IMG/VR virus record: IMGVR_UViG_2713896729_000006
Coordinates: 1 to 18,239 of that record
Reading direction: 5' to 3' (one strand)
DNA from: a virus
Lineage: Duplodnaviria > Heunggongvirae > Uroviricota > Caudoviricetes
Length of the DNA: 18,239 nt
The position numbers and the translations under genes are program-made. A model generated the notes under the pieces. The model had not been told where the DNA came from. It saw only the letters and a list, made by a program, of their open reading frames with translations, and searched no databases. Positions 2,223-17,847 of this stretch are shown here, piece by piece (position 1 is the stretch's first letter; every line of letters starts with the position of its first letter).

Positions 2223-3077
2223 ATGTCTAATAGTGTTACTAATTTTGAGATGAGCAGCGTTCTACCAGGAAAAAAACCTTGTCAAGGCAAAAACAATGAG
2301 TCACAGGTAGTACAGACTACTCCCATAAAAAAACACTCAGTCACGTTCAAAAATCAATCTTCATTAGGAGTAATTGATCATTATGCCAGACTAACAAATA
2401 AATCTCACTCTTCCGTAATAGCGGAAGTTGTGGATTTGGCTATCCCTATATTAGAAAAATGCAATCGTCATAACTGGTCAATAAATGAAATAAAAAATGA
2501 CCTGTTAAAGTTCTCTATAAAAGAAAGCATCAATCGAAGCCGAGGTAAAACAGAAGTAACTCTGGAAGAGTACTGTTCGTTAATCTGGAAAACGAACATC
2601 ATGAGTCCATTAAAAATCCCCATTGCAGATTACTTTCAACTGAACGCTAATGATGAATTCATGGGGAAAGATGAAAAAACAGTTATACGTGAAAGGCTAT
2701 CCTCGCTGAGGGAAAATTACGATATGGAAAAAGCCATTTACATTTACAATCAACGACATTTTAATGTAAAGCATCAAAGTGTCTCAGGATATTCAAACAT
2801 TATTCTTATTCATAGAACAACCTTTGAGGATTATTACTTTGATGTCGGGCAGACTCTACTCTTGTCAACATCCCAATTAATTATATTCGGGATAAATGAA
2901 GTTCTTAGAAGAAAGGGGATTGTTATGCCTTATCCGGTTGTTTGTTGGATTGATATTTACCATGTCAATGAGATGGTGGTTATGCTGCCAGTGATCCGTA
3001 AAACAGATGTTTCCAACCGTGTTAATGCACCGGATGACATCATTATAAACCCATACTCACAGGAGAGCAGAACCTAA
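2223..3077 (+). CDS. yagM: Hypothetical protein (284 aa) with a putative N-terminal ribbon-helix-helix-like segment; YagM-like
   Basis: AT-rich ORF with AAAGAGG upstream of the ATG. Residues ~38-75 (HSVTFKNQSSLGVIDHYARLTNKSHSSVIAEVVDLAIPILE) resemble an RHH (CopG/Arc-like) beta-strand plus two helices. Remainder has no recognisable motif. Symbol from recalled size/order only. Confidence 0.6.
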   Translation: MSNSVTNFEMSSVLPGKKPCQGKNNESQVVQTTPIKKHSVTFKNQSSLGVIDHYARLTNKSHSSVIAEVVDLAIPILEKCNRHNWSINEIKNDLLKFSIKESINRSRGKTEVTLEEYCSLIWKTNIMSPLKIPIADYFQLNANDEFMGKDEKTVIRERLSSLRENYDMEKAIYIYNQRHFNVKHQSVSGYSNIILIHRTTFEDYYFDVGQTLLLSTSQLIIFGINEVLRRKGIVMPYPVVCWIDIYHVNEMVVMLPVIRKTDVSNRVNAPDDIIINPYSQESRT

Positions 3078-3103
3078 GAGGTAACAAAGAAGGACAAACA
3101 ATT

Positions 3104-3802
3104 ATGAGAGGTAAAATACTACTTTACCACTCAAAGTATCGCTGGCAATCACGCTCTATTTTTGGTTATTTTTTATACAAAATAACATTATTCAGGTATC
3201 AAAAAATAATTTATGACACCGGAGTGCATCAGATGCGTTCATTTTTTTACACCATATGCAGTAGCGAACAGCAAGAAAGCATTACAGATCATCACTCACT
3301 TGCTGAGATATGCCAAAAATTTAATATTCTACCTGAACATGTTGTGATCGAGCAGGTAGATATTAAAGAGGTTGTTTCAGAGCAACGTTTACTCAGACAA
3401 TTGATTCATCATGAAATGAACCGGCAGGACACGCTTGTCATTCCAGATCTAAGCTGTCTTGGCAGAACTGTGGAGGACTTACAGAATATTTTATTTTTTT
3501 GCCTTCAAAAAGAAATGTTTATCTACAGCTACCATCCAGCTTCAAGGATAGAGCCTTCTGCTGAAAGTTGCTTGTCTTTTTTGATTGCTCGTCAGGATAC
3601 GATTGACATTCACAATCTGAAATCAACTAAAAGCCGATATCGACATGTTAAGAAGAAATTAGGACGAAAGGAGGGAAGCAAATACCGACGTGATATCACA
3701 ATACTTAAGAAAGGTGGATTTACTCAGGCTGAGATTGCAAAGAAATTGAGTATCAGTTTATCGACTGTGAAGCGGCACTGGAATAACGGAATCATCGGTT
3801 AA
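3104..3802 (+). CDS. yagL: Serine-recombinase (resolvase/invertase)-like protein with C-terminal HTH; catalytic arginines substituted, so probably a non-catalytic DNA-binding protein; YagL-like
   Basis: FFYTICSSEQQ aligns to the resolvase YARVSTxxQ motif (Ser retained, Arg replaced by Ile). DTLVIPDLSCLGRT aligns to DTLVVxKLDRLGRS (first Arg replaced). C-terminal GGFTQAEIAKKLSISLSTVKRHW is a resolvase-type HTH. A resolvase-length protein would start at the internal Met at 3233 (MRSFFYT...); the 232-aa ORF from 3104 has the better SD (AAGAAGGA). Confidence 0.7.
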   Translation: MRGKILLYHSKYRWQSRSIFGYFLYKITLFRYQKIIYDTGVHQMRSFFYTICSSEQQESITDHHSLAEICQKFNILPEHVVIEQVDIKEVVSEQRLLRQLIHHEMNRQDTLVIPDLSCLGRTVEDLQNILFFCLQKEMFIYSYHPASRIEPSAESCLSFLIARQDTIDIHNLKSTKSRYRHVKKKLGRKEGSKYRRDITILKKGGFTQAEIAKKLSISLSTVKRHWNNGIIG

Positions 3803-3899
3803 TTCCAGAAGCTAATTGCAGAGTAACTTTTTAACAGCCATCACAGGCTGGGGCTACCTTCGTCTCAAATTTAGATGTTGGATAGGTATTATAATGGCA

Positions 3900-4071
3900 T
3901 TGTGTACTCTTACTACCTGTATTCACCAGTAAGAGTAGTAATCAGATCAGTATATCCGTACTAAGATCTGATACCAGTATATACCGACAACAGTGACCAG
4001 GAATAGCCCTGCCTGTATGGCATCCCTGTACGGTCTGCTATAGACCGTAGGACCAAATACAGGTATATATT
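3900..4071 (+). promoter_or_regulatory. Intergenic control region upstream of the yagK-like gene with three hairpin-forming inverted repeats and reiterated CTGTA/TACAG motifs
   Basis: Inverted repeats TACTCTTACT/AGTAAGAGTA (3905-3914 / 3928-3937), ATCAGATC/GATCTGAT (3941-3948 / 3965-3972) and TACGGTCT/AGACCGTA (4029-4036 / 4042-4049). Motifs CCTGTATTC, CCTGTATGG, CCTGTACGG and ATACAGGTA recur across the region. Confidence 0.4.
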
Positions 4072-4698
4072 ATGAAAACATATCAAGGTACTCATGGAGT
4101 ACATATCCTCGAATATCAGATCAAGATTAAAAAATTATTATGTTATTTGACTAACCGTTACCCCAGGTTAACGGCGGTACGTGTCGATCTGCATTATCCG
4201 AAGATAGTCGATAACGGAGACAATATCTGCTGTTTCCCTAATCTTGAACCAGGGGTGATATCCCGAATGCGTGATTCCCTCAGAGCTAAACTGGAGGCTG
4301 ACCGTACCCGTAAGGAGCGTGAAGGTAAACGCATCTACCGTTGCCCTTTATTTATTATATGGGCGAAAGAGTATTCTGAATCAGGTAAATGCCACTATCA
4401 CATTTGCCTGTTGTTCAACAAAGACGCTTACTACCACCTCGGGGATTACGATCAGCACGATAACCTGAGAGGGATGATTACGGGAGCGTGGTACAGCGCC
4501 CTGAGACTGGAGAGAGACGATCACCCAGGTCTGGTCCATTTTCCTGATAACTGTAAGTACGTGCTGGATACCAATAATGCTGACTTCCAGCATAACTACC
4601 AAGCGCTGTTAACCCGACTGGATTACCTCACCAAAGTCGAAAGCAAAGTGTTTGGTGAAGGAGACCGTAACTTCGGCTGTAGCCAAATCGATCTGTAA
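4072..4698 (+). CDS. yagK: YagK/YfjJ-family protein (inovirus Gp2-like family), 208 aa
   Basis: 208-aa ORF with the Cys/His-rich pattern of this family (CCFPN..., GKCHYHICLLFNKDAYYHLG). Size and position after the recombinase-like gene match yagK (and paralog yfjJ) of K-12 cryptic prophages. Assignment from memory. Confidence 0.65.
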   Translation: MKTYQGTHGVHILEYQIKIKKLLCYLTNRYPRLTAVRVDLHYPKIVDNGDNICCFPNLEPGVISRMRDSLRAKLEADRTRKEREGKRIYRCPLFIIWAKEYSESGKCHYHICLLFNKDAYYHLGDYDQHDNLRGMITGAWYSALRLERDDHPGLVHFPDNCKYVLDTNNADFQHNYQALLTRLDYLTKVESKVFGEGDRNFGCSQIDL

Positions 4699-4707
4699 GT
4701 CGGCAAT

Positions 4708-4737
4708 GGCCTTCTCTTTGTGGGAAGGCCTATTTTA
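4708..4737 (+). terminator. Putative rho-independent terminator after the yagK-like gene
   Basis: GGCCTTC (4708-4714), 9-nt loop, GAAGGCC (4724-4730), followed by TATTTTA (4731-4737). Lies between convergent genes. Confidence 0.5.
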
Positions 4738-4785
4738 CGTCAGAGTTCAATAATATAACCAGCAGATAACCTGCCCCCAGGATCT

Positions 4786-5577
4786 TCAATTTGGTGTGAT
4801 TTTTCCACTTTCAGTCATGATAGCGATTGCTTCGTCGATAGTCTGTGTTGTAAAGAGCGAGTTTTCCCTACAGTCCTTGCGAATCACCTTCCTGTTTTTT
4901 TGCACAGAAATGTTCTCGCACCAAGCTAATGTTTCGGCGGCATGCTTTTCTTCCATGCTAATGTCCAAAAAAGCGAGGCGGCTATCAAGGGATTGCATAT
5001 CCTCATTGACAATTGAAGGACTGGATTCTAGGAGGTTCAAACGGTTTTCAACATCGGCAACCTTGCCTTTCACCTGTGAGACGTCTTCCACCAATTTTTC
5101 ATGTCTGTGGATAGCATCAGCAAGTGCTCGTGAGTTTTGGGCCAATATTTCAGCCATTTGCGCGAGGGCAGATCCTTTTGCTTCTGGCGGTGGTGGATAT
5201 ACTCCATGTTTAGTCAACGATGGTATGACCTCATGGAATAACCATTTTTGAAAGCGCTTACCAGCCGCGCTTCGGTCACTCGACATAACTCGATACAAAC
5301 CTGGTTGGGTGACGAAGATCTCTTTCTGACCTTCAAAAACACCATTTTCAGCATCTGTAGTAATATACTCATCGGGGTCAAGAGCCTGTAATTGCGCCCT
5401 GATTATTCCAGCCATCGATTTTACTGTGTAATCAGCGTTGATTTCTCTATTTTCTTTATTCAGCGTGATTAAAACATCTCGTAGTGAGATATATAGAATC
5501 TCACCAAGTATCAATGTTCTTAGATCACTTTCACCAGTCTCACCACGGTAACATATCTTGGTCAGGTTACTATTCAT
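4786..5577 (-). CDS. Bro-N / antirepressor-like domain protein (263 aa) with coiled-coil C-terminal half
   Basis: N-terminal region with ...FQKWLFHEVIPSLTKHGVY..., matching the Bro-N/KilA-N-type consensus (WV..eVLP.iRk.G.Y). C-terminal half is heptad-like and charged. GTGAGGA lies 3-4 nt before the ATG. Confidence 0.65.
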   Translation of the reverse strand: MNSNLTKICYRGETGESDLRTLILGEILYISLRDVLITLNKENREINADYTVKSMAGIIRAQLQALDPDEYITTDAENGVFEGQKEIFVTQPGLYRVMSSDRSAAGKRFQKWLFHEVIPSLTKHGVYPPPPEAKGSALAQMAEILAQNSRALADAIHRHEKLVEDVSQVKGKVADVENRLNLLESSPSIVNEDMQSLDSRLAFLDISMEEKHAAETLAWCENISVQKNRKVIRKDCRENSLFTTQTIDEAIAIMTESGKITPN

Positions 5578-5632
5578 TGATCCTCACATCGCAAAGTATA
5601 GGCACATTCAAATCAGTATCTTTTTTCCTGTG

Positions 5633-5665
5633 CTGTTCTGAGGTGAGTATATCACCTCAGAACAG
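5633..5665. promoter_or_regulatory. Perfect 14-bp inverted repeat with 5-nt spacer between the end of the operon and the Bro-N gene start; candidate operator and/or RNA hairpin
   Basis: CTGTTCTGAGGTGA (5633-5646), GTATA, TCACCTCAGAACAG (5652-5665). No U-tract follows on either strand, so not a canonical intrinsic terminator. Confidence 0.45.
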
Positions 5666-5691
5666 GTGGCCAAATTCGGTGTGTCACTTCA

Positions 5692-6870
5692 CTATGCCTT
5701 CACCAGTTTCGCAGACATGGGGTCATAAACATACCCAATGATGCTACCATCCTTAATACGTGCAACAGCCTCATCGATAACGAATAACGGAACGAGAAAC
5801 CATTCCTCGGGCTGTACTGGATGGCCGAAACGGTCGTTAATGGTAATGTTAAGCCTTGCGGGTGCAAACAACCTGTGAAACAGGTTTTCCATCCGGGTGC
5901 GGTTGATGCCTGCAAGCTTGTATGAAGCTACTACCTCGACCTTCGCTAACAGATAGGTGGAATCGTGTTCCGCATTGGCAATACGCGCCTCTACTTTGCC
6001 GCCAGTCACTCCAATCTTGTGAATGACATCACGATGTTCAGCTACATAAGGGTTATCAGATAGCGAACGCAACACATAAATGGTGCCACTTTCTAGATCG
6101 CTCTCTTCTAGAGCATCGCTGAATAAAGGCCCCATGTCTGGATCGGTAATTCGGCGTGCTGTTTCGTCTTTATACAAAGCACGAACCAGTGACAGCCGAA
6201 GTAGGTTGCTTTCCGTACCATTCGAGTAAATGACACGCAGTCGAGCATCTTTCTTCCCCTGTGGCGAATCGAACTCTTCACCTTCCTCAGCCACATAAGC
6301 CGTTTGACCATCCAGGATGAACCAATGGCCCACTTCAATCGTTGCATACTGTCCAAAAGGTCGGGTCACTCTTAACCCTGAACTTAGATCACTGCGCACC
6401 TGTTCAAATAGCGGTTTGAATGTATCAAAATCCTCGCACGGCTTGCGATCCGCGATCCCTTGTACAGCACGCTTTTCGGAGCTAGCACGAACATGACGCA
6501 AGACTGTGATATCGTCCTCGCTGGTAACATCCGCCAGTTCGGCAGCCAAATTATCGATATCGATAAATTCGTCCGCTGACTCCGCTCCCTCCCCCCCTCC
6601 GGCCAACAAGCCCTGATGATCCAGCGGCTCTAGCAAGGCACGGCAGTCTGGGAGACTGCGTAGCCGGTCGAGCCGCACTGCATAGAGGCGCTCGAAGATC
6701 TCACGATCTTCGCCGTGTTGCGGCGCACGTCCATGTTGGTCAGCGAAGCGCTGGATTTCCTCAAAACCTGCGATGATGCGTTCCTCGCTGGCTGGACGTC
6801 CTTTTTTCTTCTCCGGTGGTGCAAATTCGGCAAGTTCTGCCGCCAAATCGTCTAAATCAGAATTACTCAT
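5692..6870 (-). CDS. GIY-YIG-like (T5orf172-type) domain protein, about 392 aa; third gene of the methyltransferase-helicase operon (B. subtilis YeeC-like)
   Basis: C-terminal region GTIYVLRSLSDNPYVAEHRDVIHKIGVTGGKVEARIANAEHDSTYLLAKVEV fits the GIY-(x10)-YIG-like/T5orf172 pattern with a following conserved Arg. The ATG at 6870 (MSNSDLDD...) overlaps the helicase stop (ATGAGTAA), so it is preferred over the longer ORF start at 6936. N-terminus carries two copies of a D(L/I)D(D/N)LAAELA(E/D) motif. Confidence 0.65.
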   Translation of the reverse strand: MSNSDLDDLAAELAEFAPPEKKKGRPASEERIIAGFEEIQRFADQHGRAPQHGEDREIFERLYAVRLDRLRSLPDCRALLEPLDHQGLLAGGGEGAESADEFIDIDNLAAELADVTSEDDITVLRHVRASSEKRAVQGIADRKPCEDFDTFKPLFEQVRSDLSSGLRVTRPFGQYATIEVGHWFILDGQTAYVAEEGEEFDSPQGKKDARLRVIYSNGTESNLLRLSLVRALYKDETARRITDPDMGPLFSDALEESDLESGTIYVLRSLSDNPYVAEHRDVIHKIGVTGGKVEARIANAEHDSTYLLAKVEVVASYKLAGINRTRMENLFHRLFAPARLNITINDRFGHPVQPEEWFLVPLFVIDEAVARIKDGSIIGYVYDPMSAKLVKA

Positions 6871-8908
6871 AATGTCCCTCCGCCCTAAAACGCATAAACG
6901 CGGCTGCACCTTCTGCAAGGTGCTTTTCCCAGGCATCCGGCGAAGTTAACGATGGGAGGCGTCCACGTTCACGTTTGAATTCAGCAGCACGCTTGGCGAT
7001 CACTTTGGCATCTTCAGGCGTGATCGAGGTACGCTTGGCCGAGATGGCCGCCGCGACCTGCTTCAAGCTATCTTCGCTCATTGTCTTAGCAAGGATGGCG
7101 TAGGCTTCACCAAAGGGATTGATGCGGTCGATAAGATCTATGTCTAAATCGCGTACGTCCATCGCAAAGCGACGCACTCCGTCAATAAGGGCAGTATTGA
7201 GCGTCCCATCGTTCTCGCCGTTGACAATACGCTTAGCCTGCTGCGTGAGATTAAGGGCGGCAATAGCGTGCTGACGCACAGCCTCCTGATCTTCAGCGCC
7301 AAGTTCAGGGTACTTTTCTTTGATGATCTTCCCCATACGAACCTGTGTTAATTCTTCAGGAATGAGCTCTTCGTCGAACAGTCCACGTTCGATGGCGGGC
7401 TTATCTTGCACAAAAGCCGCGATCACTTCATTTAAATCTTCCTGGCAGATGCGTGCCGCCTCTTTGCTCCTGGGCTCGGCAAGTCCCTTAATCTCGATTT
7501 GATACGTCCCTGTCTGCTCATTAACACCAAAATTGCAGTTATCCGGGTCATACCCTCCTTCACCATAATCAAAACCTGGGGTCGGGCCGCTTTCTGGGTT
7601 CTTAGGCTTGAACTCGAAGCGCGGAGCCAATACTTGCTCCATCAGCAGGCTTGCCGCGATGGCTTTCAAGGTATCGTTGACTGCCTCGGTGACTGCCCCC
7701 TCTACAGCATCCGGCTCGGCGATCAGGTTAGTAAACCTTGCGCGGGTTTTACCCGGCGCGTCGCGAGTGGCGCGACCGATGATCTGCACGATCTCAGTCA
7801 GGCTGGCACGGTAACCAACGGTCAACGCATGTTCGCACCAGATCCAGTCGAAACCTTCCTTCGCCATACCAAGTGCAATAATGATGTCCACATAATCACG
7901 GTCTGTCTTCATTTCTGCAGCACGGAGACTTTCCTGAATCTTGCCTTGGCTGGTTGGGTCCACCAGGTCAGCAATACGTAACACGCGTCCATCGAGGCAT
8001 TTGACTAGCTGAAAACCAGTCACAGGATCCGCTCCTTGCCAATCGCCAAGCTCGCCGAGAATGTGCTCCACCTCTTTGATTTTATCCTTCGTGCTCTCGC
8101 GCGAATTGACGTTGGGAATATGGATAATGGTCTTCTTGTCAGGATCGAGTACATTGAGGATGTCATCGACGTAGGAGCCACTGTAGAAGAAGTAGCCGAT
8201 ATCGAGTTGCTTGAGGTATTCGTAGCCGTTAAGTTGTTCGTAGTAGGTGTAGGTGACGGTATCGAACCTGGACTCATCCTGAGGAGCCAACACGGCCTCC
8301 GCATCACCCCGGAAGTAGGATCCGGTCATGGCAACGATGTGCGTCTTGTCCCGCGCGATAAACTGCCCCAGCTGCTGACCAAGCTTATTATCCGGGTTAG
8401 CTGACACATGGTGGAATTCATCGACCGCGATCAGGCGATCGTCAAACGCTTCTATACCGTAGGCATCGACCGCGAAGCGAAAGGTTGCGTGTGTGCAAAC
8501 AAGCACCTTGTCACTACTTTCAAGAAAAGAGCCAAAAGATCTTACCTTGCCACCGTTGTCGTTACCGGGCGCGTTGCACAGGTTCCACTTAGGTTCGACA
8601 TGCCAATCAGTCCAGAATCCAAACTGCGATAGCGGTTCATCGTTGAAGCTCGCGCCGATAGATTTTTCCGGCACAACGATGATTGCCTGTTTAATCCCTT
8701 GATTTTCGAGTTTGTCGAGTGCGACGAACATCAGAGCACGACTCTTACCGGAGGCGGGCGGCGACTTGATGAGAAGATATTGTTCTCCGCGCTTCTCATA
8801 GGCCCTTTCTTGCATAGGCCGCATCCCAAGAGCATTAGCCTTGGTCGATGCTCCGCTGCGTGAGTAGGTAACGGAAACGGACGGTACTGATTTAATCTTG
8901 TTGCTCAT
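6863..8908 (-). CDS. Superfamily 2 DEAD/DEAH-box helicase/ATPase (681 aa); second gene of the operon (YeeB-like)
   Basis: Walker A (LLIKSPPASGKSRAL), DExH box (LIAVDEFHHV), motif III-like (MTGS) and motif VI (QIIGRATR) in order, then a C-terminal extension of about 300 aa. Start ATG overlaps the methyltransferase stop (ATGA at 8905-8908). Confidence 0.85.
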   Translation of the reverse strand: MSNKIKSVPSVSVTYSRSGASTKANALGMRPMQERAYEKRGEQYLLIKSPPASGKSRALMFVALDKLENQGIKQAIIVVPEKSIGASFNDEPLSQFGFWTDWHVEPKWNLCNAPGNDNGGKVRSFGSFLESSDKVLVCTHATFRFAVDAYGIEAFDDRLIAVDEFHHVSANPDNKLGQQLGQFIARDKTHIVAMTGSYFRGDAEAVLAPQDESRFDTVTYTYYEQLNGYEYLKQLDIGYFFYSGSYVDDILNVLDPDKKTIIHIPNVNSRESTKDKIKEVEHILGELGDWQGADPVTGFQLVKCLDGRVLRIADLVDPTSQGKIQESLRAAEMKTDRDYVDIIIALGMAKEGFDWIWCEHALTVGYRASLTEIVQIIGRATRDAPGKTRARFTNLIAEPDAVEGAVTEAVNDTLKAIAASLLMEQVLAPRFEFKPKNPESGPTPGFDYGEGGYDPDNCNFGVNEQTGTYQIEIKGLAEPRSKEAARICQEDLNEVIAAFVQDKPAIERGLFDEELIPEELTQVRMGKIIKEKYPELGAEDQEAVRQHAIAALNLTQQAKRIVNGENDGTLNTALIDGVRRFAMDVRDLDIDLIDRINPFGEAYAILAKTMSEDSLKQVAAAISAKRTSITPEDAKVIAKRAAEFKRERGRLPSLTSPDAWEKHLAEGAAAFMRFRAEGHYE

Positions 8909-11712
8909 GCATTAGTTCTCACTTTACGCTTCTTGCCTTTGGCCGGTGCAGCAGAAGCGGCCATCTTTATATAAAGATCAAATAGCTTTTCAAGCCGCTC
9001 TGTATCATTCTTAAAGCGACGGCCGATGTAGATGCGCTCCAGTACTTCATCATTGCGATCATGCGCAGCCCGCAGATCAGTAGGCATGTTAGCAGGATCG
9101 TATAGGTCCGCGATGGTCGCGGGAAAATGATGCTCACGCGCCAGAAGTATGTCCTCCGCGCAGCGTGTGAGGTCAGCCTTGTTTTTTTCTGTGAGTTTTG
9201 GTACTGGGAAGGTGTTCCAGCCGAGGGTGTTAGAGTAGCGGTAGCGTGTTTCCAATTTTCCGCAGATGGTGGCGATCCAAACCAGGTGTAGACGAGATGC
9301 AATGAGCGCAAGATTCCAGAGCGGAGCGTCGTAGAGAGCAAAGGCGAGGTTACTGACTACCGAATGATTATCAATCAGTCCAACAGGAAGATACTCGCGC
9401 CCTTCCGATGAAACCCCCGGTAGAATCAGCGTGTGCTTGCCACCGTGATACATTTCGCGAAACTGATGAGCCCGTGATGCTAACTCATTCGTACCAGCAT
9501 CTTTACTTTTGAGCCGCATTTCCCGAACGCCATCAATCCGACCCCGAATAGACGCAATCTCCAAAGCTTGCGGCAATTTTACATCAGGGATCCAGAGGCA
9601 CTTACGTACTACTCCGCGAATAAACTCGGCAGAACCATAGATGCGCCGAAGAAATGTCTCTTCATCCTGCTTGCTCAAACCGAGCGAAACCGCGTCATCC
9701 GCCGATAACAAAAGATTTCCCCCATCGACGGGCATGTTGCCAAAAGACATATCCGGCAGACCCGATATGCTCTTGCGCTGGCCCTCGACTACAACATCCT
9801 CACCAACACTCAGATAGGGCGTGATGTTTGTCGCCTCGCGTACAGTAGTTTGGCCATTGCGGTCCAAGTCGTAAAGTAGCCTTGTCTTACTCACATCCGT
9901 AGATAGGCCGACGATAGCGACTGTTACACCCGCGTTGTGTGCAGCAAGGTTCGTCCATTTGAAGCTGGAGTGCGCGAAGCGAATGTGGGAGCCACATTTG
10001 AAAATTGCTGGCCACAGGATAGGAACAATTCGGCCTTGACAGATAGAGTTGGTGCTAACAAAAGCCGAATCCGTTGGTGTGGCTTGCGCGTAGGCAGCAG
10101 CTTTCATGAACCAACCACCAACATAATCGATTTGTTTAGACGAAATACCATAAGGTTCAAATACCGAAGCCAAATCCGCTTTCTGCTCTTTAGTCTGCGT
10201 TTGGCTACCTTTGTAAGGTGGGTTACCACAGATGTATGTCTCCCCACCTTCGTTCTGAAAGCCAATCTCTGCTTGACCGAGAGGCGTCTCAAAGAGGTTA
10301 TCTGCCTGCAACTTCACGCCAATTCCGGACGGAGGGCAAACGCTCAACCAATCAATCCGCAATGCGTTGCCACATGTAATCCAATTATCATTACGCAGAG
10401 GAAGAAACTCGGCCAGTGCAAGTTTTAGTCCCCGGTACACCACATCGCACTGATACTCAGCAATAACTAGCGCGAGACGGGCAATCTCCGCAGGGAAATC
10501 TCGTATTTCGATCCCGCGAAAGTTGGTAAGAGGGATGTCAGAGGCATTATCCATCTCGCCACGTCGTCGATTAATCTCGGCCTCGATGGCTCGCATTTCC
10601 TTGTACGCAATCACTAAGAAGTTGCCAGATCCACATGCTGGGTCGAATACGCGGATTCGGGCCATACGCTTGCGCAGATTGAGCAGCATGCGCGGATTGT
10701 CACCGGCTTCATCCAGTTTCGCCCGCAGTTCGTCGAGGAATAGTGGGTTAAGCACCTTGAGTATATTGGGGACACTAGTGTAATGCATTCCCAACTCACC
10801 ACGCTCTTCGTCTTCGGTAATGGCCTGAATCATCGAGCCGAATATGTCTGGGTTGATTTTGGTCCAATCCAGATTGCCAACATGTAGAAGATAGGATCGC
10901 GCAATACGGCTGAAGCGCGGTACCTCCTCACTTCCCGAGAAAAGAGCGCCGTTTACATAAGGAAACTCAGCAGCCCAACGCGGGATACCGACAACACTTC
11001 GCTCATCGCGTGGGGTGTTCATTGCACGAAACAACGTGGCGATGACCTCGTGCAAATTAGAAGCGTCGCGCTCACTCATCTGCGCAATAGTGTCAGTAAA
11101 GCGCCCCTTGCCTATAAATATGTCAGTGTCTTCGGCGAAAAAGCAGAAAATTAGACGCGCCATGAACTTGTTCATGTCATGACGACGCCCCGAAGTACCC
11201 CATTCAGGATTGTCTTTTAACAGTTCGACGTACAGGCGGTTCAAACGGCTAGTAGCACGGATGTCAAAGGCGTCTTCGCTGATCTGCCGAACAGTGCTGA
11301 TACCTGCCAATGGCAAAAAGAAGCCGAAGTGATCGGGAAAGTCTTTAAAGGCACAAGCCACAGTCTGACCACTGTTGAGGTCCTCGGCTTCAAAGTATTT
11401 GCCGTCCGTGGCAAGGATGAATTTCGCCTTGGCCTTGCCTGTTGCCGGGCTGGCCTTAAGTGCAGCCAGCATCTGTGTGACTTGGCCCCCTTCACTGGCC
11501 AGAATGTGGATGTTGTTTGTCTGAAGAACACCACCCAAGTCGGACTTATTCGATGCCCCGGCGCGCAGACGTTTGATGGTCGTTTCCTTGTTACCAAAGG
11601 CTTCAAGAAAAGCATAAGGAAACTCTATAGGATCAAAGGGTTGTTCCGCAAGATCCGTGATGGCTTGCTCAATTTCTACGGCGTTCATTTGCGTACAGTT
11701 CTCCATTGGCAT
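8905..11712 (-). CDS. MmeI-family (Type IIL/IIG-like) gamma-class N6-adenine DNA methyltransferase with C-terminal target-recognition region (935 aa); first gene of the operon (YeeA/PglX-like)
   Basis: Motif X-like (LGMHYTSVPNILKVLNPLFLDEL), motif I (VFDPACGSGNFLV) and motif IV (CGNPPYKGSQTQTKEQKADL) in gamma order. Further MmeI-like blocks: RLIFCFFAEDTDIF, FPYVNGALF, LDWTKINPDIFGS, SAFVSTNSICQG, LETRYRYSNTLGWNTFP, LYDPANMPTDLRAAH. The N-terminal 100 residues show no obvious D...ExK nuclease motif by eye. The true start may be the Met at residue 9 (MNAVEIEQ). Confidence 0.88.
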   Translation of the reverse strand: MPMENCTQMNAVEIEQAITDLAEQPFDPIEFPYAFLEAFGNKETTIKRLRAGASNKSDLGGVLQTNNIHILASEGGQVTQMLAALKASPATGKAKAKFILATDGKYFEAEDLNSGQTVACAFKDFPDHFGFFLPLAGISTVRQISEDAFDIRATSRLNRLYVELLKDNPEWGTSGRRHDMNKFMARLIFCFFAEDTDIFIGKGRFTDTIAQMSERDASNLHEVIATLFRAMNTPRDERSVVGIPRWAAEFPYVNGALFSGSEEVPRFSRIARSYLLHVGNLDWTKINPDIFGSMIQAITEDEERGELGMHYTSVPNILKVLNPLFLDELRAKLDEAGDNPRMLLNLRKRMARIRVFDPACGSGNFLVIAYKEMRAIEAEINRRRGEMDNASDIPLTNFRGIEIRDFPAEIARLALVIAEYQCDVVYRGLKLALAEFLPLRNDNWITCGNALRIDWLSVCPPSGIGVKLQADNLFETPLGQAEIGFQNEGGETYICGNPPYKGSQTQTKEQKADLASVFEPYGISSKQIDYVGGWFMKAAAYAQATPTDSAFVSTNSICQGRIVPILWPAIFKCGSHIRFAHSSFKWTNLAAHNAGVTVAIVGLSTDVSKTRLLYDLDRNGQTTVREATNITPYLSVGEDVVVEGQRKSISGLPDMSFGNMPVDGGNLLLSADDAVSLGLSKQDEETFLRRIYGSAEFIRGVVRKCLWIPDVKLPQALEIASIRGRIDGVREMRLKSKDAGTNELASRAHQFREMYHGGKHTLILPGVSSEGREYLPVGLIDNHSVVSNLAFALYDAPLWNLALIASRLHLVWIATICGKLETRYRYSNTLGWNTFPVPKLTEKNKADLTRCAEDILLAREHHFPATIADLYDPANMPTDLRAAHDRNDEVLERIYIGRRFKNDTERLEKLFDLYIKMAASAAPAKGKKRKVRTNA

Positions 11713-11993
11713 GTGACCGCCCTGCTGCTACTGGTGTGCAGTGAACTCATGTCATATCCTAGGTTTTCTTGGAAATTTTTGACCGTAAGTTTAACAGAAT
11801 AGAACCCAGCGCTGTAGCTGATTCAGTCTCAGATCCACGTTTCAGAAAGCCCTATTATGTATTTATGGCGAGAATTTTAGCATTGAGATATTTTCGATAA
11901 AATATACATATTTTCAGCCAATTAAAGACTGCTAAATTCATGGTATATGAGACGCTCGCATGTGAGTAACTTCCGTTCTTATTTCTGGTTTTC
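11713..11993 (-). promoter_or_regulatory. AT-rich intergenic region upstream of the methyltransferase gene; probable promoter region for the operon (elements not mapped)
   Basis: About 280 bp of AT-rich non-coding sequence between the IS66 remnant and the operon start, with no convincing ORF on the operon strand. Confidence 0.3.
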
Positions 11994-13316
11994 TTAAAAC
12001 GTATTAAGGTTGCACCGAATATGGTTTTCCCCGCTGACCCTGACCCGATTGACTGTCCAGTCAGCTATGACGTCAAGCACATGACGAAGGTAGCTTTCTG
12101 GATCCACGCCGTTTAGTTTGCACGTCCCGATCAGACTGTACATCAGCGCTACACGCTCACCTCCGTGGTCTGAGCCGAAGAACAGCCAGTTTTTTCTCCC
12201 CAAACTGACCATCCGCAGCGCATTTTCAGCGATGTTGTTATCGGCTTCTGTCCAGCCATTGCCTGCATAGTGCGTCAGGGCCGGCCACTGGTTAAGGGCG
12301 TACGCGAACGCTTTCGCCAGCTCTGAGTGTCGTGACAGGGTGTTCATCTTTTCACGCAGCCAGCTTTCCAGGGATTTCAGCAGCGGTTTCGCTTTCTGCT
12401 GACGTTCAGCAAGACGTTGCTCCGCCGGCATTCCCCTTATTTCCGCCCCGATGGCATACAACCCGCCGATACGCTTCAGGGCATCCTCCGTCAGCGCCGA
12501 CGGCGTGCGGGCGTACACATCGTGGATTTTACGGCGGGCGTGAGCCCAGCAGGCGGCTTCCGTTATCTGGCCACCGCGGTACAACTCGTTGAATCCTGCA
12601 TACGCATCCGCCTGCAGCACTCCCCTGAAGCCGGCAAGATGGGTCTGCGGGTGGATGGCTTTTCTGTCCGGGCTGTAAGCGAACCACACCGCCGGTGCGA
12701 CTGCTGACCCGGCGTTGCGGTCATCACGAACGTACTTCCACAATCGCCCGGACTTCGTCTTCTTATTGCCCGACAGCAGCATCTGGACCGGGGTATCATC
12801 GACATGGAGTTTGCCGTCGCTCAGGACATAGCCCCGAAGCGCCTCCTCCAGCGGTGACAGCAGCCTGCAGCATGCATCCACCCAGCCCGACAGGAGGGAG
12901 CGGCTCAGTTCCACACCCTGGCGGCTATATATTTCAGACTGGCGGTACAGCGGGGTATGCTCTGCATACTTTGAGCCCAGTACCCGGGCCAGCAGCCCCG
13001 CTCCGGCGATACTCCGCTCGATGGGACGTGAAGGCGCGGGGGCCTGCACGATAGCGTCGCATTTTGTACAGGCGTGTTTTTCCCGCACGGTCCGGATAAC
13101 CCGGAAGGCGCTGCGCATCAGCTCCAGCTGTTCAGCAGTATCTTCACCCAGCCAGCGCAGTGAATCGCCACAGTCCGGGCAGCATGATGCCGCCGACAAC
13201 AGCCGTTTTTCGTCACGAGGGAGTGATTCGGGGAACGGTTTACGGGTGCGGGTCTGGCGAAGCGACCACGCTCCAGCCGTTTGGTCAGCAGACACAGCCT
13301 GTCGCCGGTAGACCAC
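11994..13316 (-). pseudogene. tnpC: IS66-family transposase TnpC, lacking the N-terminal leucine-zipper segment and with an aberrant C-terminus
   Basis: Zinc-finger region (CCPDCGDSL...ACTKCD) and the conserved IS66 core are present. The ORF is about 440 aa against roughly 510-540 aa for intact TnpC, and the last 20 residues do not resemble the family C-terminus. Confidence 0.7.
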
Positions 13317-13486
13317 AGCAATTTTACCTGACTGCCACTGCAGCCCCGGAAGATGAAGACTTGGCCGGACATCGGGTCGTCTTTCAGTGCCGTCTGCACT
13401 TTTGCCGCCAGCCCGTTGAAGCCGTTGCGCATGTCGGTGATACCGGCAACCAGCCAGATTTTAGTGCCTGCAGGAAGATTTATCAT
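13118..13486 (-). pseudogene. tnpB: IS66-family TnpB (orf2), C-terminally aberrant; likely fused to tnpC by an internal deletion
   Basis: MINLPAGTKIWLVAGITDMRNGFNGLAAKVQTALKDDPMSGQVFIFRG...LWSTGDRLCLLTKRLERGRF is canonical IS66 TnpB for about 80 residues. The rest diverges and the ORF overlaps the tnpC frame by about 200 bp. Confidence 0.6.
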
Positions 13487-13866
13487 ACAGTCCCTCGCAT
13501 CAGTTCGCGCAGGACAGTGGTGATGAGTTCAGTTGAGGGATGAGTCAGTGTTATATCTCCGCCCCGACATTTTATGTGACAGGCAGTCTGAGGTGAACAG
13601 GATGGCGGTTCGGGCGTTGGGGGAGATGGCTCTGCCCGAAATTGCACGGGTATGAGAGCAGGAAGCGACGATGCGTTTTTCCGTGGGTGGCAGACCCGCC
13701 CTTCACGTTGCCAGAGCCTTATCCATTTAAAGAGCAGGTTGTCATTGACATCATGTTGTCGGGCCAGCGCAGCAACACTTCCTTCTTTTTCAAGTGCCAG
13801 CCTGACCAGTTCCATTTTAAACTCAGGGGAATATCGTTTTCGGGGAAGTCTTTCTTTGGCGCGCAT
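13483..13866 (-). CDS. tnpA: IS66-family accessory protein TnpA (orf1), 127 aa
   Basis: MRAKERLPRKRYSPEFKMELVRLALEKEGSVAALARQHDVNDNLLFKW... matches the IS66 orf1 pattern. Stop overlaps the tnpB start (ATGA). Confidence 0.8.
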   Translation of the reverse strand: MRAKERLPRKRYSPEFKMELVRLALEKEGSVAALARQHDVNDNLLFKWIRLWQREGRVCHPRKNASSLPALIPVQFRAEPSPPTPEPPSCSPQTACHIKCRGGDITLTHPSTELITTVLRELMRGTV

Positions 13867-14145
13867 TAGGTGTCCACCTGCAAATTAAGTGGGGGCTTAA
13901 GTTACAGGATAGTGGTTTCAGAGCCAGACGTTTTTGAGACAACGCTTACTCTAAACCCAAGCGTAAATGTCTATTATTGGCAAAATACCACCAGCCAACA
14001 TGAGCTGTGATGTAAAGTTGACACTGCTACAGTTACATGAGCCTGTTTATATTCTAAATAAATTCAGATAGATATTATCTCCGTGAATCCCCCGCCTCCC
14101 TGACCGGAGCGCGGGAATTTTTGTTTTTCACGCTGAGAACCCTGT

Positions 14146-14250
14146 ATGAATAAAACTGATGGCCTTCAGGCCCTGGAAAAACCGCTGGCGTCGCTTCCCG
14201 ATACGCTTCGCCAGCTTATTCTTGAACGTATTCAGAATCTGACCCACTAC
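14146..14250 (+). CDS. 5' fragment (35 codons) of an unidentified gene, cut by an N10 run
   Basis: ATG at 14146 opens MNKTDGLQALEKPLASLPDTLRQLILERIQNLTHY, running into the N-run at 14251. Product not recognised. Confidence 0.3.
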
Positions 14251-14260
14251 NNNNNNNNNN
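14251..14260. other. Run of 10 N (gap or masked junction)
   Basis: Exactly ten ambiguous bases separating unrelated sequence blocks. Confidence 0.95.
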
Positions 14261-14335
14261 GCCGTTGCCGAACGTAGGCCGGATAAGGCGTTCACGCCGC
14301 ATCCGGCAATCGGTGCACGATGCCTGATGCGACGC
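14261..14335. repeat. REP/BIME element (E. coli repetitive extragenic palindromic sequences)
   Basis: GTAGGCCGGATAAGGCGTTCACGCCGCATCCGGCA is the reverse complement of the canonical REP unit; a second REP begins at GCCTGATGCGACGC and is cut by the next N-run. Confidence 0.85.
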
Positions 14336-14345
14336 NNNNNNNNNN
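14336..14345. other. Run of 10 N (gap or masked junction)
   Basis: Exactly ten ambiguous bases. Confidence 0.95.
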
Positions 14346-14521
14346 GCCCCTGCAGCGGGTCATAATAGCGGTGGCGGTTGTAATACAGGCCGGACTCCTC
14401 ATCATACTGCTGACCCGGCAGGCGAATGAGCTGCTGCAGATGATGCGGGTTCTCATCACTCAGCAGGTTGCCCCATTCATCATATTCTGCGCACCACGCT
14501 GTTGCCCCTTCCGTGCTGATG
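14346..14521 (-). pseudogene. Fragment of an Rhs/YD-repeat protein core, bounded by N-runs on both sides
   Basis: Minus-strand translation [58 protein letters not shown] contains the Rhs core signature ([10 protein letters not shown]). Confidence 0.8.
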
Positions 14522-14531
14522 NNNNNNNNNN
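14522..14531. other. Run of 10 N (gap or masked junction)
   Basis: Exactly ten ambiguous bases. Confidence 0.95.
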
Positions 14532-14793
14532 CGAGCTGCTGCACCATATTCCTGAACAACTGAGCAAACGAGAGAGGTATACCGACAAATGGCAGCGACG
14601 CACACACTCCCTCTGGCGTCACCGGGCATGGCGCGCATCTGCCTTTACGGGGATTTACAACGATTTGGCCGCCGCATCGACCTTCGTGTGAAAACGGGGG
14701 CTGAAGCCATTCGGGCGCTGGCCACACAGCTCCCGGCGTTTCGTCAGAAACTGAGCGACGGCTGGTATCAGGTACGGATTGCCGGGCAGGATG
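14532..14793 (+). pseudogene. Second, divergent copy of a lambdoid tail K 3' end and I 5' end, bounded by N-runs
   Basis: Encodes ...ELLHHIPEQLSKRERYTDKWQRRTHSLWRHRAWRASAFTGIYNDLAAASTFV (K C-terminus) and, overlapping, MAATHTLPLASPGMARICLYGDLQRFGRRIDLRVKTGAEAIRALATQLPAFRQKLSDGWYQVRIAGQD (I N-terminus). Near-identical to 16832-17094 with roughly a dozen substitutions counted by eye. Confidence 0.8.
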
Positions 14794-14803
14794 NNNNNNN
14801 NNN
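14794..14803. other. Run of 10 N (gap or masked junction)
   Basis: Exactly ten ambiguous bases. Confidence 0.95.
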
Positions 14804-15212
14804 ATCAGGCGGTACAGCCATTCAGGCCGCTGCGGCGAAATTCCATTTTGCAACCGGAGGATTTACGGGAACCGGCGGCAAATATGAGCCAGCGGGGATT
14901 GTTCACCGTGGTGAATTTGTCTTCACGAAGGAGGCAACCAGCCGGATTGGTGTCGGCAACCTGTACCGCCTGATGCGGGGCTATGCGGAAGGTGGTTATG
15001 TGGGCGGTGCCGGAAGTCCGGCGCAGATGCGGCGGGCTGAAGGCATTAATTTTAATCAGAACAATCACGTGGTGATTCAGAACGACGGTACGAATGGTCT
15101 GCCAGGTCCACAGATGATGAAGGCGGTGTATGACATGGCCCGCAAGGGTGCCCGTGATGAAATCCAGGCACAGATGCGCGATGGTGGTCTGTTCTCCGGA
15201 GGTGGACGATGA
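14804..15212 (+). CDS. H: Lambda-like tail tape measure protein H, C-terminal fragment (5' end missing at the N-run)
   Basis: In-frame translation ...GGFTGTGGKYEPAGIVHRGEFVFTKEATSRIGVGNLYRLMRGYAEGGYVGG...MRDGGLFSGGGR matches the C-terminal end of lambda gpH. Stop overlaps the M start (ATGA). Confidence 0.8.
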
Positions 15213-15538
15213 AAACCTTCCGCTGGAAAGTGAAACCCGGTATGGATGTGGCTTCGGCCCCTTCTGTAAGAAAGGTGCGCTTTGGTGATGGCTATTCCCA
15301 GCGAGCGCCTGCCGGGCTGAATGCCAACCTGAAAACGTACAGCGTGACGCTTTCTGTCCCCCGTGAGGAGGCCACGGTACTGGAGTCGTTTCTGGAAGAG
15401 CACGGGGGCTGGAAATCCTTTCTGTGGACGCCGCCTTATGAGTGGCGGCAGATAAAGGTGACCTGCGCAAAATGGTCGTCGCGGGTCAGTATGCTGCGTG
15501 TTGAGTTCAGCGCAGAGTTTGAACAGGTGGTGAACTGA
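15209..15538 (+). CDS. M: Lambda-like minor tail protein M (109 aa)
   Basis: MKTFRWKVKPGMDVASAPSVRKVRFGDGYSQRAPAGLNANLKTYSVTLSVP... matches lambda gpM in sequence, size and position. Confidence 0.92.
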   Translation: MKTFRWKVKPGMDVASAPSVRKVRFGDGYSQRAPAGLNANLKTYSVTLSVPREEATVLESFLEEHGGWKSFLWTPPYEWRQIKVTCAKWSSRVSMLRVEFSAEFEQVVN

Positions 15539-16236
15539 TGCAGGATATCCGGCAGGAAACACTGAATGAATGCACCCGTGCGGAGCAGTCGGCCAGCGTG
15601 GTGCTCTGGGAAATCGATCTGACAGAGGTCGGTGGAGAACGTTATTTTTTCTGTAATGAGCAGAACGAAAAAGGTGAGCCGGTCACCTGGCAGGGGCGAC
15701 AGTATCAGGCGTATCCCATTCAGGGGAGTGGTTTTGAACTGAATGGCAAAGGCACCAGTACGCGCCCCACGCTGATGGTTTCTAACCTGTACGGTATGGT
15801 CACCGGGATGGCGGAAGATCTACAGAGTCTGGTCGGCGGAACGGTGGTCCGGCGTAAGGTTTACGCCCGTTTTCTGGATGCGGTGAACTTCGTCAACGGA
15901 AACAGTGACGCCGATCCGGAGCAGGAGGTGATCAGCCGCTGGCGCATCGAGCAGTGCAGCGAACTGAGCGCGGTGAGTGCCTCTTTTGTACTGTCCACGC
16001 CGACGGAAACGGACGGCGCTGTTTTTCCGGGACGTATCATGCTGGCCAACACCTGCACCTGGACCTATCGCGGTGATGAGTGCGGTTATCACGGTCCGGC
16101 GGTCGCGGATGAATATGATCAGCCGACGTCCGATATCACGAAGGATAAATGCAGCAAATGCCTGAGTGGCTGTAAGTTTCGCAATAATGTCGGCAACTTT
16201 GGCAGCTTCCTTTCCATTAACAAACTTTCGCAGTAA
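15538..16236 (+). CDS. L: Lambda-like minor tail protein L (232 aa)
   Basis: MQDIRQETLNECTRAEQSASVVLWEIDLTEVGGERYFFCNEQNEKGEPVTWQGRQYQAYPIQGSGFELNGKG... matches lambda gpL. Start overlaps the M stop by one base (TGATG). Confidence 0.92.
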   Translation: MQDIRQETLNECTRAEQSASVVLWEIDLTEVGGERYFFCNEQNEKGEPVTWQGRQYQAYPIQGSGFELNGKGTSTRPTLMVSNLYGMVTGMAEDLQSLVGGTVVRRKVYARFLDAVNFVNGNSDADPEQEVISRWRIEQCSELSAVSASFVLSTPTETDGAVFPGRIMLANTCTWTYRGDECGYHGPAVADEYDQPTSDITKDKCSKCLSGCKFRNNVGNFGSFLSINKLSQ

Positions 16237-16284
16237 ATCCCATGACAGAGACAGAATCAGCGATTCTGGCGCACGCCCGGCGAT

Positions 16285-16986
16285 GTGCGCCAGCGGAAGT
16301 CGTGCGGCTTCGTGGTGAGAACGCCGGAGGGGGAAAGATATTTTCCCTGCGTGAATATTTCCGGTGAGCCGGAGGATTATTTCCGGATGGCTCCGGAGGA
16401 CTGGCTGCAGGCAGAAATGCAGGGTGAGATTGTGGCGCTGGTCCACAGCCACCCCGGTGGTCTGCCCTGGCTGAGTGAGGCTGACCGGCGGCTGCAGGTG
16501 CAGAGTGATTTGCCGTGGTTGCTGGTCTGCCGGGGGGCGATTCATAAGTTCCGCTGTGTGCCGCATCTCACCGGGCGGCGCTTTGAGCACGGGGTGACGG
16601 ACTGTTACACGCTGTTCCGGGATGCTTATCATCTGGCGGGGATTGAGATGCCGGATTTTCATCGCGAGGATGACTGGTGGCGTCACGGTCAGAATCTCTA
16701 TCTGGATAATCTGGAGGCCACAGGGCTGTATCAGGTGCCGTTGTCATCAGCACAACCGGGCGATGTGCTGCTGTGCTGTTTTGGTTCATCGGTGCCGAAT
16801 CATGCCGCCATTTACTGTGGTGACGGTGAGCTGCTGCACCATATTCCTGAACAACTGAGTAAACGAGAGAGGTACACCGACAAATGGCAGCGACGCACAC
16901 ACTCCCTCTGGCGTCACCGGGCATGGCACGCATCTGCCTTTACGGGGATTTACAACGATTTGGCCGCCGCATCGACCTTCGTGTGA
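16285..16986 (+). CDS. K: Lambda-like tail tip assembly protein K (MPN/JAMM plus NlpC/P60 domains); start uncertain
   Basis: JAMM motif HSHPGGLPWLSEAD and downstream NlpC/P60-like region. The ORF opens at a GTG at 16285; an internal ATG at 16387 has a GGAGGA SD and would give a 199-aa product; an ATG at 16242 is in a different frame. Confidence 0.85.
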   Translation: MRQRKSCGFVVRTPEGERYFPCVNISGEPEDYFRMAPEDWLQAEMQGEIVALVHSHPGGLPWLSEADRRLQVQSDLPWLLVCRGAIHKFRCVPHLTGRRFEHGVTDCYTLFRDAYHLAGIEMPDFHREDDWWRHGQNLYLDNLEATGLYQVPLSSAQPGDVLLCCFGSSVPNHAAIYCGDGELLHHIPEQLSKRERYTDKWQRRTHSLWRHRAWHASAFTGIYNDLAAASTFV

Positions 16987-17531
16987 AAACGGGGGCTGAA
17001 GCCATCCGGGCGCTGGCCATGCAGAACCCGGCGTTTCGTCAGAAACTGAGCGACGGCTGGTACCAGGTACGCATTGCCGGGCGTGATGCAGGTGAAACCG
17101 AATTGTCTGCCCGTCTTAATGAGCCGCTGGCAAATGGTGCCGTGATCCACATCGTGCCGCGTCTGGCGGGAGCTAAAAGTGGCGGTGTGTTTCAGGTGGT
17201 GCTGGGGGCGGCGCTGATTGCGGTGGCATGGTGGAACCCTGTGGGCTGGCTGGGTGCCGCGGCTGTATCGGGCATGTATGCGGCAGGGGCCAGTATGATC
17301 CTGGGCGGAGTGGCGCAGATGCTGGCACCGAAAGCCAGGACGCCCACGGCAGCAAGTACAGATAACGGCAAACAGAACACCTATTTCTCGTCACTGGATA
17401 ACATGGTTGCCCAGGGCAATGTTCTGCCCGTTCTGTACGGTGAAATGCGCGTGGGGTCGCGGGTGGTATCTCAGGAAATCAGCACGGCAGACGAAGGGGA
17501 CGGTGGTCAGGTTGTGGTGATTGGTCGCTGA
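16884..17531 (+). CDS. I: Lambda-like tail assembly protein I (215 aa)
   Basis: MAATHTLPLASPGMARICLYGDLQRFGRRIDLRVKTGAEAIRAL...NGKQNTYFSSLDNMVAQGNVLPVLYGEMRVGSRVVSQEISTADEGDGGQVVVIGR matches lambda gpI. The 5' end overlaps the K 3' end in another frame. Confidence 0.9.
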   Translation: MAATHTLPLASPGMARICLYGDLQRFGRRIDLRVKTGAEAIRALAMQNPAFRQKLSDGWYQVRIAGRDAGETELSARLNEPLANGAVIHIVPRLAGAKSGGVFQVVLGAALIAVAWWNPVGWLGAAAVSGMYAAGASMILGGVAQMLAPKARTPTAASTDNGKQNTYFSSLDNMVAQGNVLPVLYGEMRVGSRVVSQEISTADEGDGGQVVVIGR

Positions 17532-17549
17532 TGCAAAACATTTTATGTG

Positions 17550-17576
17550 AAACCGCCTGCGGGCGGTTTTGTCGTT
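17550..17576 (+). terminator. Terminator-like GC hairpin with T-run between I and J
   Basis: AAACCGCC, loop TGCG, GGCGGTTT, then TGTCGTTT, 19 nt after the I stop. Confidence 0.4.
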
Positions 17577-17591
17577 TATGGAGCGTGACGA

Positions 17592-17837: not shown

Positions 17838-17847
17838 NNNNNNNNNN
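17838..17847. other. Run of 10 N (gap or masked junction) at the J/IS1 boundary
   Basis: Exactly ten ambiguous bases immediately before the IS1 terminal sequence. Confidence 0.95.

Follow-up and report, generated by a model that had tools for sequence, protein, structure and literature searches.

A putatively nuclease-dead YeeA-type methyltransferase encoded with a helicase and a GIY-YIG protein in Escherichia coli

What role is left to the N-terminal domain of an MmeI-like methyltransferase when the nuclease site expected there is missing? The question is raised by a gene in IMG/VR virus record IMGVR_UViG_2713896729_000006 (Caudoviricetes), of which the stretch from position 1 to 18,239, all 18,239 nucleotides of it, is called the window here. 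The window is E. coli DNA and matches strain ECC-1470 at 100% identity over positions 5600-11800. A preliminary description, made from the letters of the sequence alone, had singled out an open reading frame (ORF) of 935 aa on the minus strand at 8905-11712, which is present as described, and had suggested that the protein may lack the endonuclease site of MmeI-type enzymes, in which case cleavage would have to come from a GIY-YIG-like partner. Our analysis indicates that the protein is very probably a nuclease-dead subunit of the YeeA type, from a branch of the MmeI family in which the active site of the ancestral PD-(D/E)xK domain appears to have been lost.

The methyltransferase and its N-terminal domain

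Residue numbers are those of the ORF, counted from the ATG at 11712, unless stated otherwise; an ORF number equals the RefSeq number plus 8. The true start of the gene is almost certainly the ATG at 11688 (M9), 8 codons inside the ORF of the preliminary description, because 115 of the 121 aligned family sequences begin there, with no residues upstream, and the RefSeq annotation places the start at the same ATG. Read from this codon, the gene (8905-11688, minus strand) encodes a 927-aa protein that we annotate as a YeeA/DnmA-type, MmeI-homologous N6-adenine DNA methyltransferase with a target recognition domain (TRD). Five MmeI domains scored above threshold in a Pfam search, all encoded on the minus strand. 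MmeI_N lies at 11212-11688 (residues 9-167, or 1-159 counted from 11688; E=4.5e-33) and is the predicted nuclease-dead relative of the PD-(D/E)xK domain of MmeI. It is followed by the helical spacer MmeI_hel (10939-11181; residues 178-258) and by MmeI_Mtase, the gamma-class N6-adenine methyltransferase catalytic domain (9871-10716; residues 333-614; E=9.5e-113), so that about 250 residues do precede the methyltransferase core, as had been stated. MmeI_TRD (9193-9804; residues 637-840; E=8.9e-82) is the variable cassette of the family, and the C-terminal helical domain MmeI_C (8962-9189; residues 842-917; E=3e-17) completes the chain. The gamma-class motifs are intact, with DPACGSGNF at residue 349 and NPPY at residue 489; the protein matches MmeI (PDB 5HR4) at E=5.5e-149, and the PADLOC model REase_MTase_IIG spans its whole length (E=3.4e-283). 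Several database homologues of the gene carry the wrong source name 'lactate dehydrogenase'.

The catalytic residues of MmeI are D70, E80 and K82 (PMC2731913). As a reference we took 120 database N-domains of the MmeI type, in which D70 and E80 are invariant and K82 occurs in 120 of the 121 aligned sequences; E25, E51, Q94, Y98 and D115 are also almost invariant, D115 again in 120 of 121. When a profile of diverse N-domains of the window type was aligned to the MmeI-type profile with hhalign (98.35% probability, 168 columns), the columns of D70, E80 and K82 fell on G61, L71 and S73 of the window protein, while E51 fell on R50, Q94 on an alanine and Y98 on a gap. Among 120 close homologues, the first of the three catalytic columns holds glycine in all 121 sequences, the second L, A or K and the third C, A or S. 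In this alignment the segment matched to D70...E80-x-K82 runs from D58 to S73 (DLGGVLQTNNIHILAS; 11494-11541, minus strand). The two peptides in which the preliminary description had seen no convincing D...(D/E)xK arrangement were located at residues 57-77 (SDLGGVLQTNNIHILASEGGQ) and 97-112 (KFILATDGKYFEAEDL).

The sole (D/E)xK string in the whole N-domain is D103-G-K105. We reject it as a nuclease motif and regard it as a chance match, because K105 is not conserved, being A, V or T in homologues, and sits on the wrong strand: in the secondary structure of an AlphaFold2 (AF2) model it occupies the strand after the central helix and not the strand that bears ExK in MmeI. Judged from sequence, the MmeI-type PD-(D/E)xK site is absent from this domain. 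With D70, E80 and K82 unmatched and no alternative triad in the domain, the original observation is therefore confirmed, in that alignment of the N-domain to MmeI, one of the checks that had been proposed, revealed no intact triad. It follows that a PADLOC-type label such as 'self-sufficient Type IIG restriction enzyme' is misleading for this protein, because it cannot cut DNA with this domain.

The placement of the three residues has to be read with care. Searches of PDB sequences with phmmer and with the family profile aligned MmeI 5HR4 only from about MmeI residue 101-108 onward, past the motif, and these alignments gave no placement of the catalytic residues, the motif region lying outside the aligned part. 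When hhalign was run on truncated profiles, residues 1-90 of the window type showed no similarity to residues 1-107 of the MmeI type (probability <1%), the sole local match being a 14-column helix motif, FPYAFLEAFG against FLIDFFEVFG (P=0.08). The 98% probability of the full-length comparison derives entirely from residues ~90-192; the mapping of D70, E80 and K82 is therefore imposed by the alignable flanks, and we claim no residue-level homology in the motif region. The catalytic core segment appears to be unrecognisable and to have no substitute triad, so that 'three point substitutions' would be the wrong description of it. On the same comparisons, the first ~90 residues seem to have been remodelled beyond sequence recognition, with the protein from the second half of the N-domain onward still MmeI-like.

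These results raise the possibility that the first ~90 residues did not arise by decay of a nuclease core and are instead a non-homologous replacement on an MmeI scaffold, which would concern the origin of the domain only and would be compatible with a coupling role. The failure of the truncated alignments speaks for such a replacement, as does the length of the segment, which is ~11 residues shorter than in MmeI. Structure prediction gave evidence on both sides. The AF2 model of residues 1-270 (RefSeq numbering in this and the next sentence) has a mean predicted local distance difference test score (pLDDT) of 87 and a predicted template modelling score (pTM) of 0.51. It shows three helices, two short strands at 54-56 and 60-64 that fall within the segment matched to the MmeI motif, helices at 70-85, three strands at 90-113 and a helix at 114-128, followed by a low-confidence linker between N-domain and spacer at 133-141 (11266-11292, minus strand; pLDDT <50) and then by the helical spacer. 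The model places a helix where strand 1 is predicted in MmeI (prediction from PMC2731913), which favours replacement and weighs against our own account of the domain. Foldseek comparison of the model with the PDB found the MmeI helical spacer, on which the modelled spacer superimposes at 1.5 Å, as the sole match and returned no nuclease match; the next matches, HisRS and PolG2, were dismissed as fold relatives since they were not significant. A model and fold search of the kind that had been suggested as a test thus recovered the spacer of MmeI and did not recover a nuclease fold. Overall the fold evidence modestly favours a retained nuclease-like scaffold, at the level of a predicted model, and we consider outright replacement somewhat unlikely.

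Loss of the catalytic site has not been accompanied by decay of the domain. Among homologues chosen on their full-length score, identity to the query is 0.83 for the N-domain, the same as for the methyltransferase core (0.83) and higher than for the TRD (0.78). N55, S57, H69, D103 and G104 are invariant even in members that are only 45-73% identical, and D58, S88 and T102 are conserved in at least 90% of these. The conserved polar residues N55-S57-D58, H69 and T102-D103-G104 map to window positions 11494-11547 and 11401-11409 and fit no known motif; in the profile-profile alignment D103 pairs with the nearly invariant D115 of the MmeI type. The N-domain thus appears to be dead as a nuclease and still to be kept under selection.

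Conservation of this kind could also mean that the domain has acquired a new site, built from N55, S57, D58, H69, S88, T102 and D103, and acts as an enzyme or ligand sensor and not as a passive docking module. The invariance or near-invariance of these residues in distant members, and the correspondence of D103 with D115, would suit that idea. The set lacks, however, a conserved lysine or a second acidic pair placed as in known nucleases, and YeeA has been reported to have no endonuclease activity on its own under MmeI assay conditions (Nye et al. 2020); we therefore consider a new enzymatic or sensing site in place of a docking function very unlikely. In a related proposal the remodelled N-domain would be a switch, in which the same polar residues form a binding or catalytic site that senses the methylation state of the bound target and licenses a separate helicase-GIY-YIG effector. 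This, too, we rate as quite improbable.

Partner genes and family membership

The methyltransferase is the first gene of a tight minus-strand operon of three, encoding proteins of 927 (935 in the longer ORF), 681 and 392 aa. The second gene (6863-8908, minus strand) encodes a YeeB-type superfamily 2 (SF2) DExH helicase. Its Pfam matches, DEAD and ResIII, are weak and include no nuclease domain; GKS (residue 54), DEFH (163), TGS (195) and GRATR (378) represent helicase motifs I, II, III and VI. The third gene (5692-6870, minus strand) encodes a YeeC-type, nuclease-like GIY-YIG protein of the T5orf172/MUG113 kind (MUG113, E=2.1e-13; T5orf172, E=4.1e-11), whose T5orf172/GIY-YIG catalytic domain was delimited from Pfam and conservation at 5755-6087 (minus strand). 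In 54 sequences of this protein G262, Y265, H284, K285, G287, T289, R296, E328, E356 and W357 are invariant, and H332 is found in 53. The methyltransferase stop and the helicase start share the ATGA at 8905-8908, and the helicase stop overlaps the GIY-YIG start by 8 nt (ATGAGTAA); through these overlaps the three genes are translationally coupled. All three are intact, with invariant catalytic motifs, in about 50 species. The claim that a helicase and a separate nuclease-like gene are coupled to the methyltransferase is thus well founded, the more so as the order of the genes recurs in nearly all of those of the 80 best loci described below that have enough downstream DNA.

Cluster memberships of divergent family members yielded no names that tie them to Bacillus subtilis. 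Using YeeB and YeeC reference sequences from Fig S5 of PMC9973331, we found the window helicase to be 48% identical to YeeB of Bacillus subtilis (623 aligned positions) and 42% identical to YeeB of Vibrio crassostreae, and the GIY-YIG protein to be 34% and 33% identical to YeeC of the same two species over essentially its full length. On these identities the cassette is assigned to the dnmA(yeeA)-yeeB-yeeC family, a placement that draws on partner sequences, domain layout and gene order. Other searches with the partners were uninformative. The helicase had no match at E<=0.01 when it was compared by phmmer with all PDB chain sequences, and neither it nor the GIY-YIG protein found anything in the PDB by profile or phmmer; AF2 modelled the GIY-YIG protein poorly (pLDDT 59.8). 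PADLOC and NCBIfam hold no model that identifies either partner, giving only weak PbeA and dnd-restriction matches that we judged to be due to chance or to shared motifs.

A trio of this kind has been described before. Morgan et al. 2009 (PMC2731913) reported a group of MmeI homologues that resemble MmeI throughout except for the first ~100 residues, have no PD-ExK motif and in every case precede a helicase and a GIY-YIG protein, and they had already proposed the mechanism put forward in the preliminary description (PMC2731913). The dead N-domain is a hallmark of the YeeA/DnmA-YeeB-YeeC trio published in 2009, and the locus in the window is an ordinary, apparently intact member. Since nuclease loss was described at that time, there is little new in finding it here; the earlier interpretation, which is the same inference as that of Morgan et al. 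2009 (PMC2731913), is partly supported by our results. No mechanism, structure or newer name for the YeeABC trio was found in the literature searched.

Distribution, allele exchange and a proposed role

N-domains of the window type were found in at least 499 species genomes. We checked synteny in the 80 best species loci, drawn from Proteobacteria, Acidobacteria, Nitrospira, Verrucomicrobia, Bacteroidetes and Firmicutes and not including B. subtilis, and the order methyltransferase, helicase, GIY-YIG gene is held in nearly all of those with enough downstream DNA. The N-domain is carried by 165 plasmids, including Klebsiella megaplasmids at 96.6% identity; among phage records there was just one with a match, and that match was weak. 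Within E. coli the N-domain is present in 100 of 5426 complete genomes (~2%). At two MmeI-type loci with intact nuclease residues that were checked, neither a helicase nor a GIY-YIG gene lies nearby.

A second E. coli allele, in strain H8 (L083, NZ_CP010172.1, 6094-12093), was compared with window positions 5692-11688. The two alleles share 95% identity in their N-domains, 97% in their helicases and 96% in their nucleases, falling to 73% in the methyltransferase core and only 45% in the TRD. They occupy different chromosomal contexts, each bordered by transposase remnants. Over the species loci with a full-length methyltransferase, mean TRD identity is 0.49. The exchange of the TRD is the swapping of specificity cassettes that is expected of a working restriction system. 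In 48 loci, N-domain identity correlates with that of the helicase (r=0.85) and of the nuclease (r=0.88), the values for the TRD being r=0.25-0.27.

From these observations we propose that the window encodes the recognition and modification subunit of a three-gene helicase-nuclease cassette. With its motifs intact, the methyltransferase-TRD subunit would bind an asymmetric site and methylate one of its strands; YeeA/DnmA methylates GACGAG (Nye et al. 2020), and one-strand methylation of an asymmetric site is established for DnmA. On unmodified sites the dead, flexibly tethered N-domain would serve as a coupling or docking module, which may recruit or license the helicase-nuclease pair through physical contact. 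The pair would then use ATP and cut the unmodified DNA, presumably with the GIY-YIG site of the YeeC-type protein. Taken as a whole, the cassette would act like a Type ISP or Type I enzyme that has been split into three proteins and given a different nuclease fold, and it would be expected to function in defence in E. coli. We consider this overall picture, that of a nuclease-dead YeeA-type subunit in a split system resembling Type I or Type ISP restriction, to be reasonably probable. The specific role of the dead N-domain as an adaptor to YeeB and YeeC is a more tentative part of it, plausible without being favoured.

Several lines of evidence weigh against the proposal, in addition to the modelled helix described above. 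The correlation between N-domain and partner identities is explained equally well by recombination of only the central methyltransferase/TRD cassette, and it is therefore no evidence of contact between the N-domain and the partners. A divergent YeeA-type member, P0223 (L082, GCA_003280135.1, 8001-10751), has an N-domain 46% identical to that of the window and stands without a helicase or GIY-YIG neighbour, as a naturally occurring orphan of the family. In B. subtilis, dnmA-yeeB-yeeC restricted neither plasmids nor phages (PMC7261158, PMC9973331), and deletion of dnmA, yeeB or yeeC left transformation and infection by three phages unchanged; the authors call the cluster a relic. Of these reports, that of Nye et al. 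2020 described no restriction of transformation by the cluster, and that of Fernandez et al. 2023 saw no phage defence in B. subtilis and confirmed the conserved synteny. Phage genomes show no depletion of the DnmA motif.

Much of this evidence would be accounted for if the methyltransferase were an orphan, gene-regulatory enzyme, as has been suggested for DnmA of B. subtilis, and if its two partner genes were non-functional remnants and the dead N-domain a leftover. The silent deletions, the undepleted motif and the solitary P0223 all fit such an enzyme, and a Streptococcus mutans enzyme with the YeeA motif has likewise been described as an orphan. Remnants would not, however, be expected to stay intact, translationally coupled and invariant in their catalytic motifs across about 50 species, nor would a leftover domain be as conserved as the methyltransferase core. 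Exchange of the TRD within E. coli with the N-domain and partners kept at 95-97% identity also argues against the orphan view, as do the presence of the cassette on islands and plasmids and the finding that yeeAB protects V. crassostreae against some phages (Piel et al.). On balance we regard an orphan regulator as unlikely.

The cassette belongs to a very widespread family with conflicting genetics, namely no restriction in B. subtilis versus phage defence in Vibrio. With intact partners and two natural TRD alleles, the E. coli copy would be a convenient model for the question of whether the dead domain links target recognition to the helicase-nuclease pair.

Genomic setting and comparison with known systems

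The cassette stands at the end of a CP4-6-like integrative island (within window positions 1-5577; intF, yagN, ykgV, yagM, yagL, yagK), with a BRO-N domain gene at 4786-5577 directly downstream of the nuclease gene. Upstream of the methyltransferase, positions 11994-18239 differ from ECC-1470, where a Y-family polymerase gene stands instead. This part of the window holds an IS66 element (transposase, 11994-13316; orfB, 13118-13486; orfA, 13483-13866), lambdoid tail genes (minor tail, 15209-15538; tail L, 15538-16236; NlpC/JAB tail K, 16285-16986; tail I, 16884-17531) and an IS1 transposase (17862-18239).

Many related loci have variable cargo of 0.5-3.4 kb between the methyltransferase and the helicase, at the point that corresponds to the ATGA junction at 8905-8908 in the window. 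Examples are L002 (11784-13112), L004 (11772-12833), L018 (11723-13555), L052 (13007-14197), L073 (12721-14244), L081 (9901-11190) and L012 (11772-12551). The cargo includes a YhcG/DUF1016 PDDEXK nuclease, an AAA_21/AAA_15 ATPase, a helix-turn-helix protein with Peptidase_M78, a Schlafen AlbA_2 protein with HATPase_c_4, and a PDDEXK_4 protein, together with recurrent proteins that have no Pfam match. Its position resembles that of the defence genes embedded in Type I hsd operons. Should the N-domain prove to be a methylation-sensing switch, YeeABC would form an ATP-dependent restriction class of its own and would offer other defence genes a natural platform for insertion.

The window protein has its five domains in common with MmeI and the Type IIL/IIG enzymes, and the resemblance is strong over everything that follows residue ~96 (E=5.5e-149, as above). 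It differs in having no counterpart of D70/E80/K82 or of Q94/Y98, in a first ~90 residues that cannot be aligned, and in being paired with a helicase and a GIY-YIG protein, unlike the two checked MmeI-type loci and the MmeI type of Morgan et al. 2009. Many genes of the MmeI type in which the nuclease residues are intact appear as two separate ORF calls, with the N-domain and spacer in one and the methyltransferase, TRD and C-terminal domain in the other, also on long contigs (L084, 7001-9225; L085, 4647-6871; L086, 7001-8951); this suggests frameshifts or pseudogenes, or possibly phase variation. The YeeA/DnmA-YeeB-YeeC systems have the following in common with the window cassette: an MmeI homologue without PD-ExK, then a DExH helicase, then a T5orf172/GIY-YIG protein in the same order, the window locus lying in horizontally acquired DNA. 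C-terminal stretches that are present in the E. coli proteins and in the defending Vibrio proteins are missing from YeeB and YeeC of B. subtilis.

The preliminary description had also drawn a parallel with PglX of the bacteriophage exclusion (BREX) systems. Like PglX, and like DrmMI of DISARM, the window protein is a large gamma-class adenine methyltransferase of a kind that marks self DNA without a working nuclease of its own, and to that extent the parallel holds. It is a loose one, since NCBIfam PglX models match only ~70 residues around the S-adenosylmethionine (SAM)-binding motif, with scores of 21-27 bits where the cut-offs are 400-900, and the window contains no further BREX gene; matches to DrmMI, of DISARM class 1, are partial only, and no Drm model is matched by either the helicase or the GIY-YIG protein. 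The same weak similarities, and the fact that cleavage has never been demonstrated for the YeeABC family, leave room for BREX-like phage exclusion without cutting, in which the methyltransferase marks self and the helicase and GIY-YIG protein block replication. Against this stand the PglX matches themselves, which lie far below threshold and cover the SAM motif only, and the absence of pglZ, brxC, brxL and DISARM genes from the window. The catalytic residues of the GIY-YIG protein are invariant, which argues for hydrolysis, and exclusion without cutting seems to us extremely unlikely.

Closer functional analogies are found in Type I and Type ISP restriction, although the cassette, when tested for membership of Type I, Type ISP, BREX and DISARM, was found to belong to none of them. 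It departs from Type I systems (HsdR, HsdM, HsdS) in having no HsdS-like gene, a single TRD, a motor without PD-ExK and a separate GIY-YIG nuclease. Type ISP enzymes are built from parts fused in one chain, and their nuclease is Mrr-like, with a PD-QxK motif. Like LlaGI and LlaBIII of this type, the cassette combines a nuclease, an SF2 helicase, a gamma-class methyltransferase and a single TRD for an asymmetric site; it differs in using three proteins and a GIY-YIG nuclease where Type ISP has a single polypeptide and a nuclease of the Mrr type. By this comparison, Type ISP offers the best working analogy for how the YeeA-YeeB-YeeC system might act.

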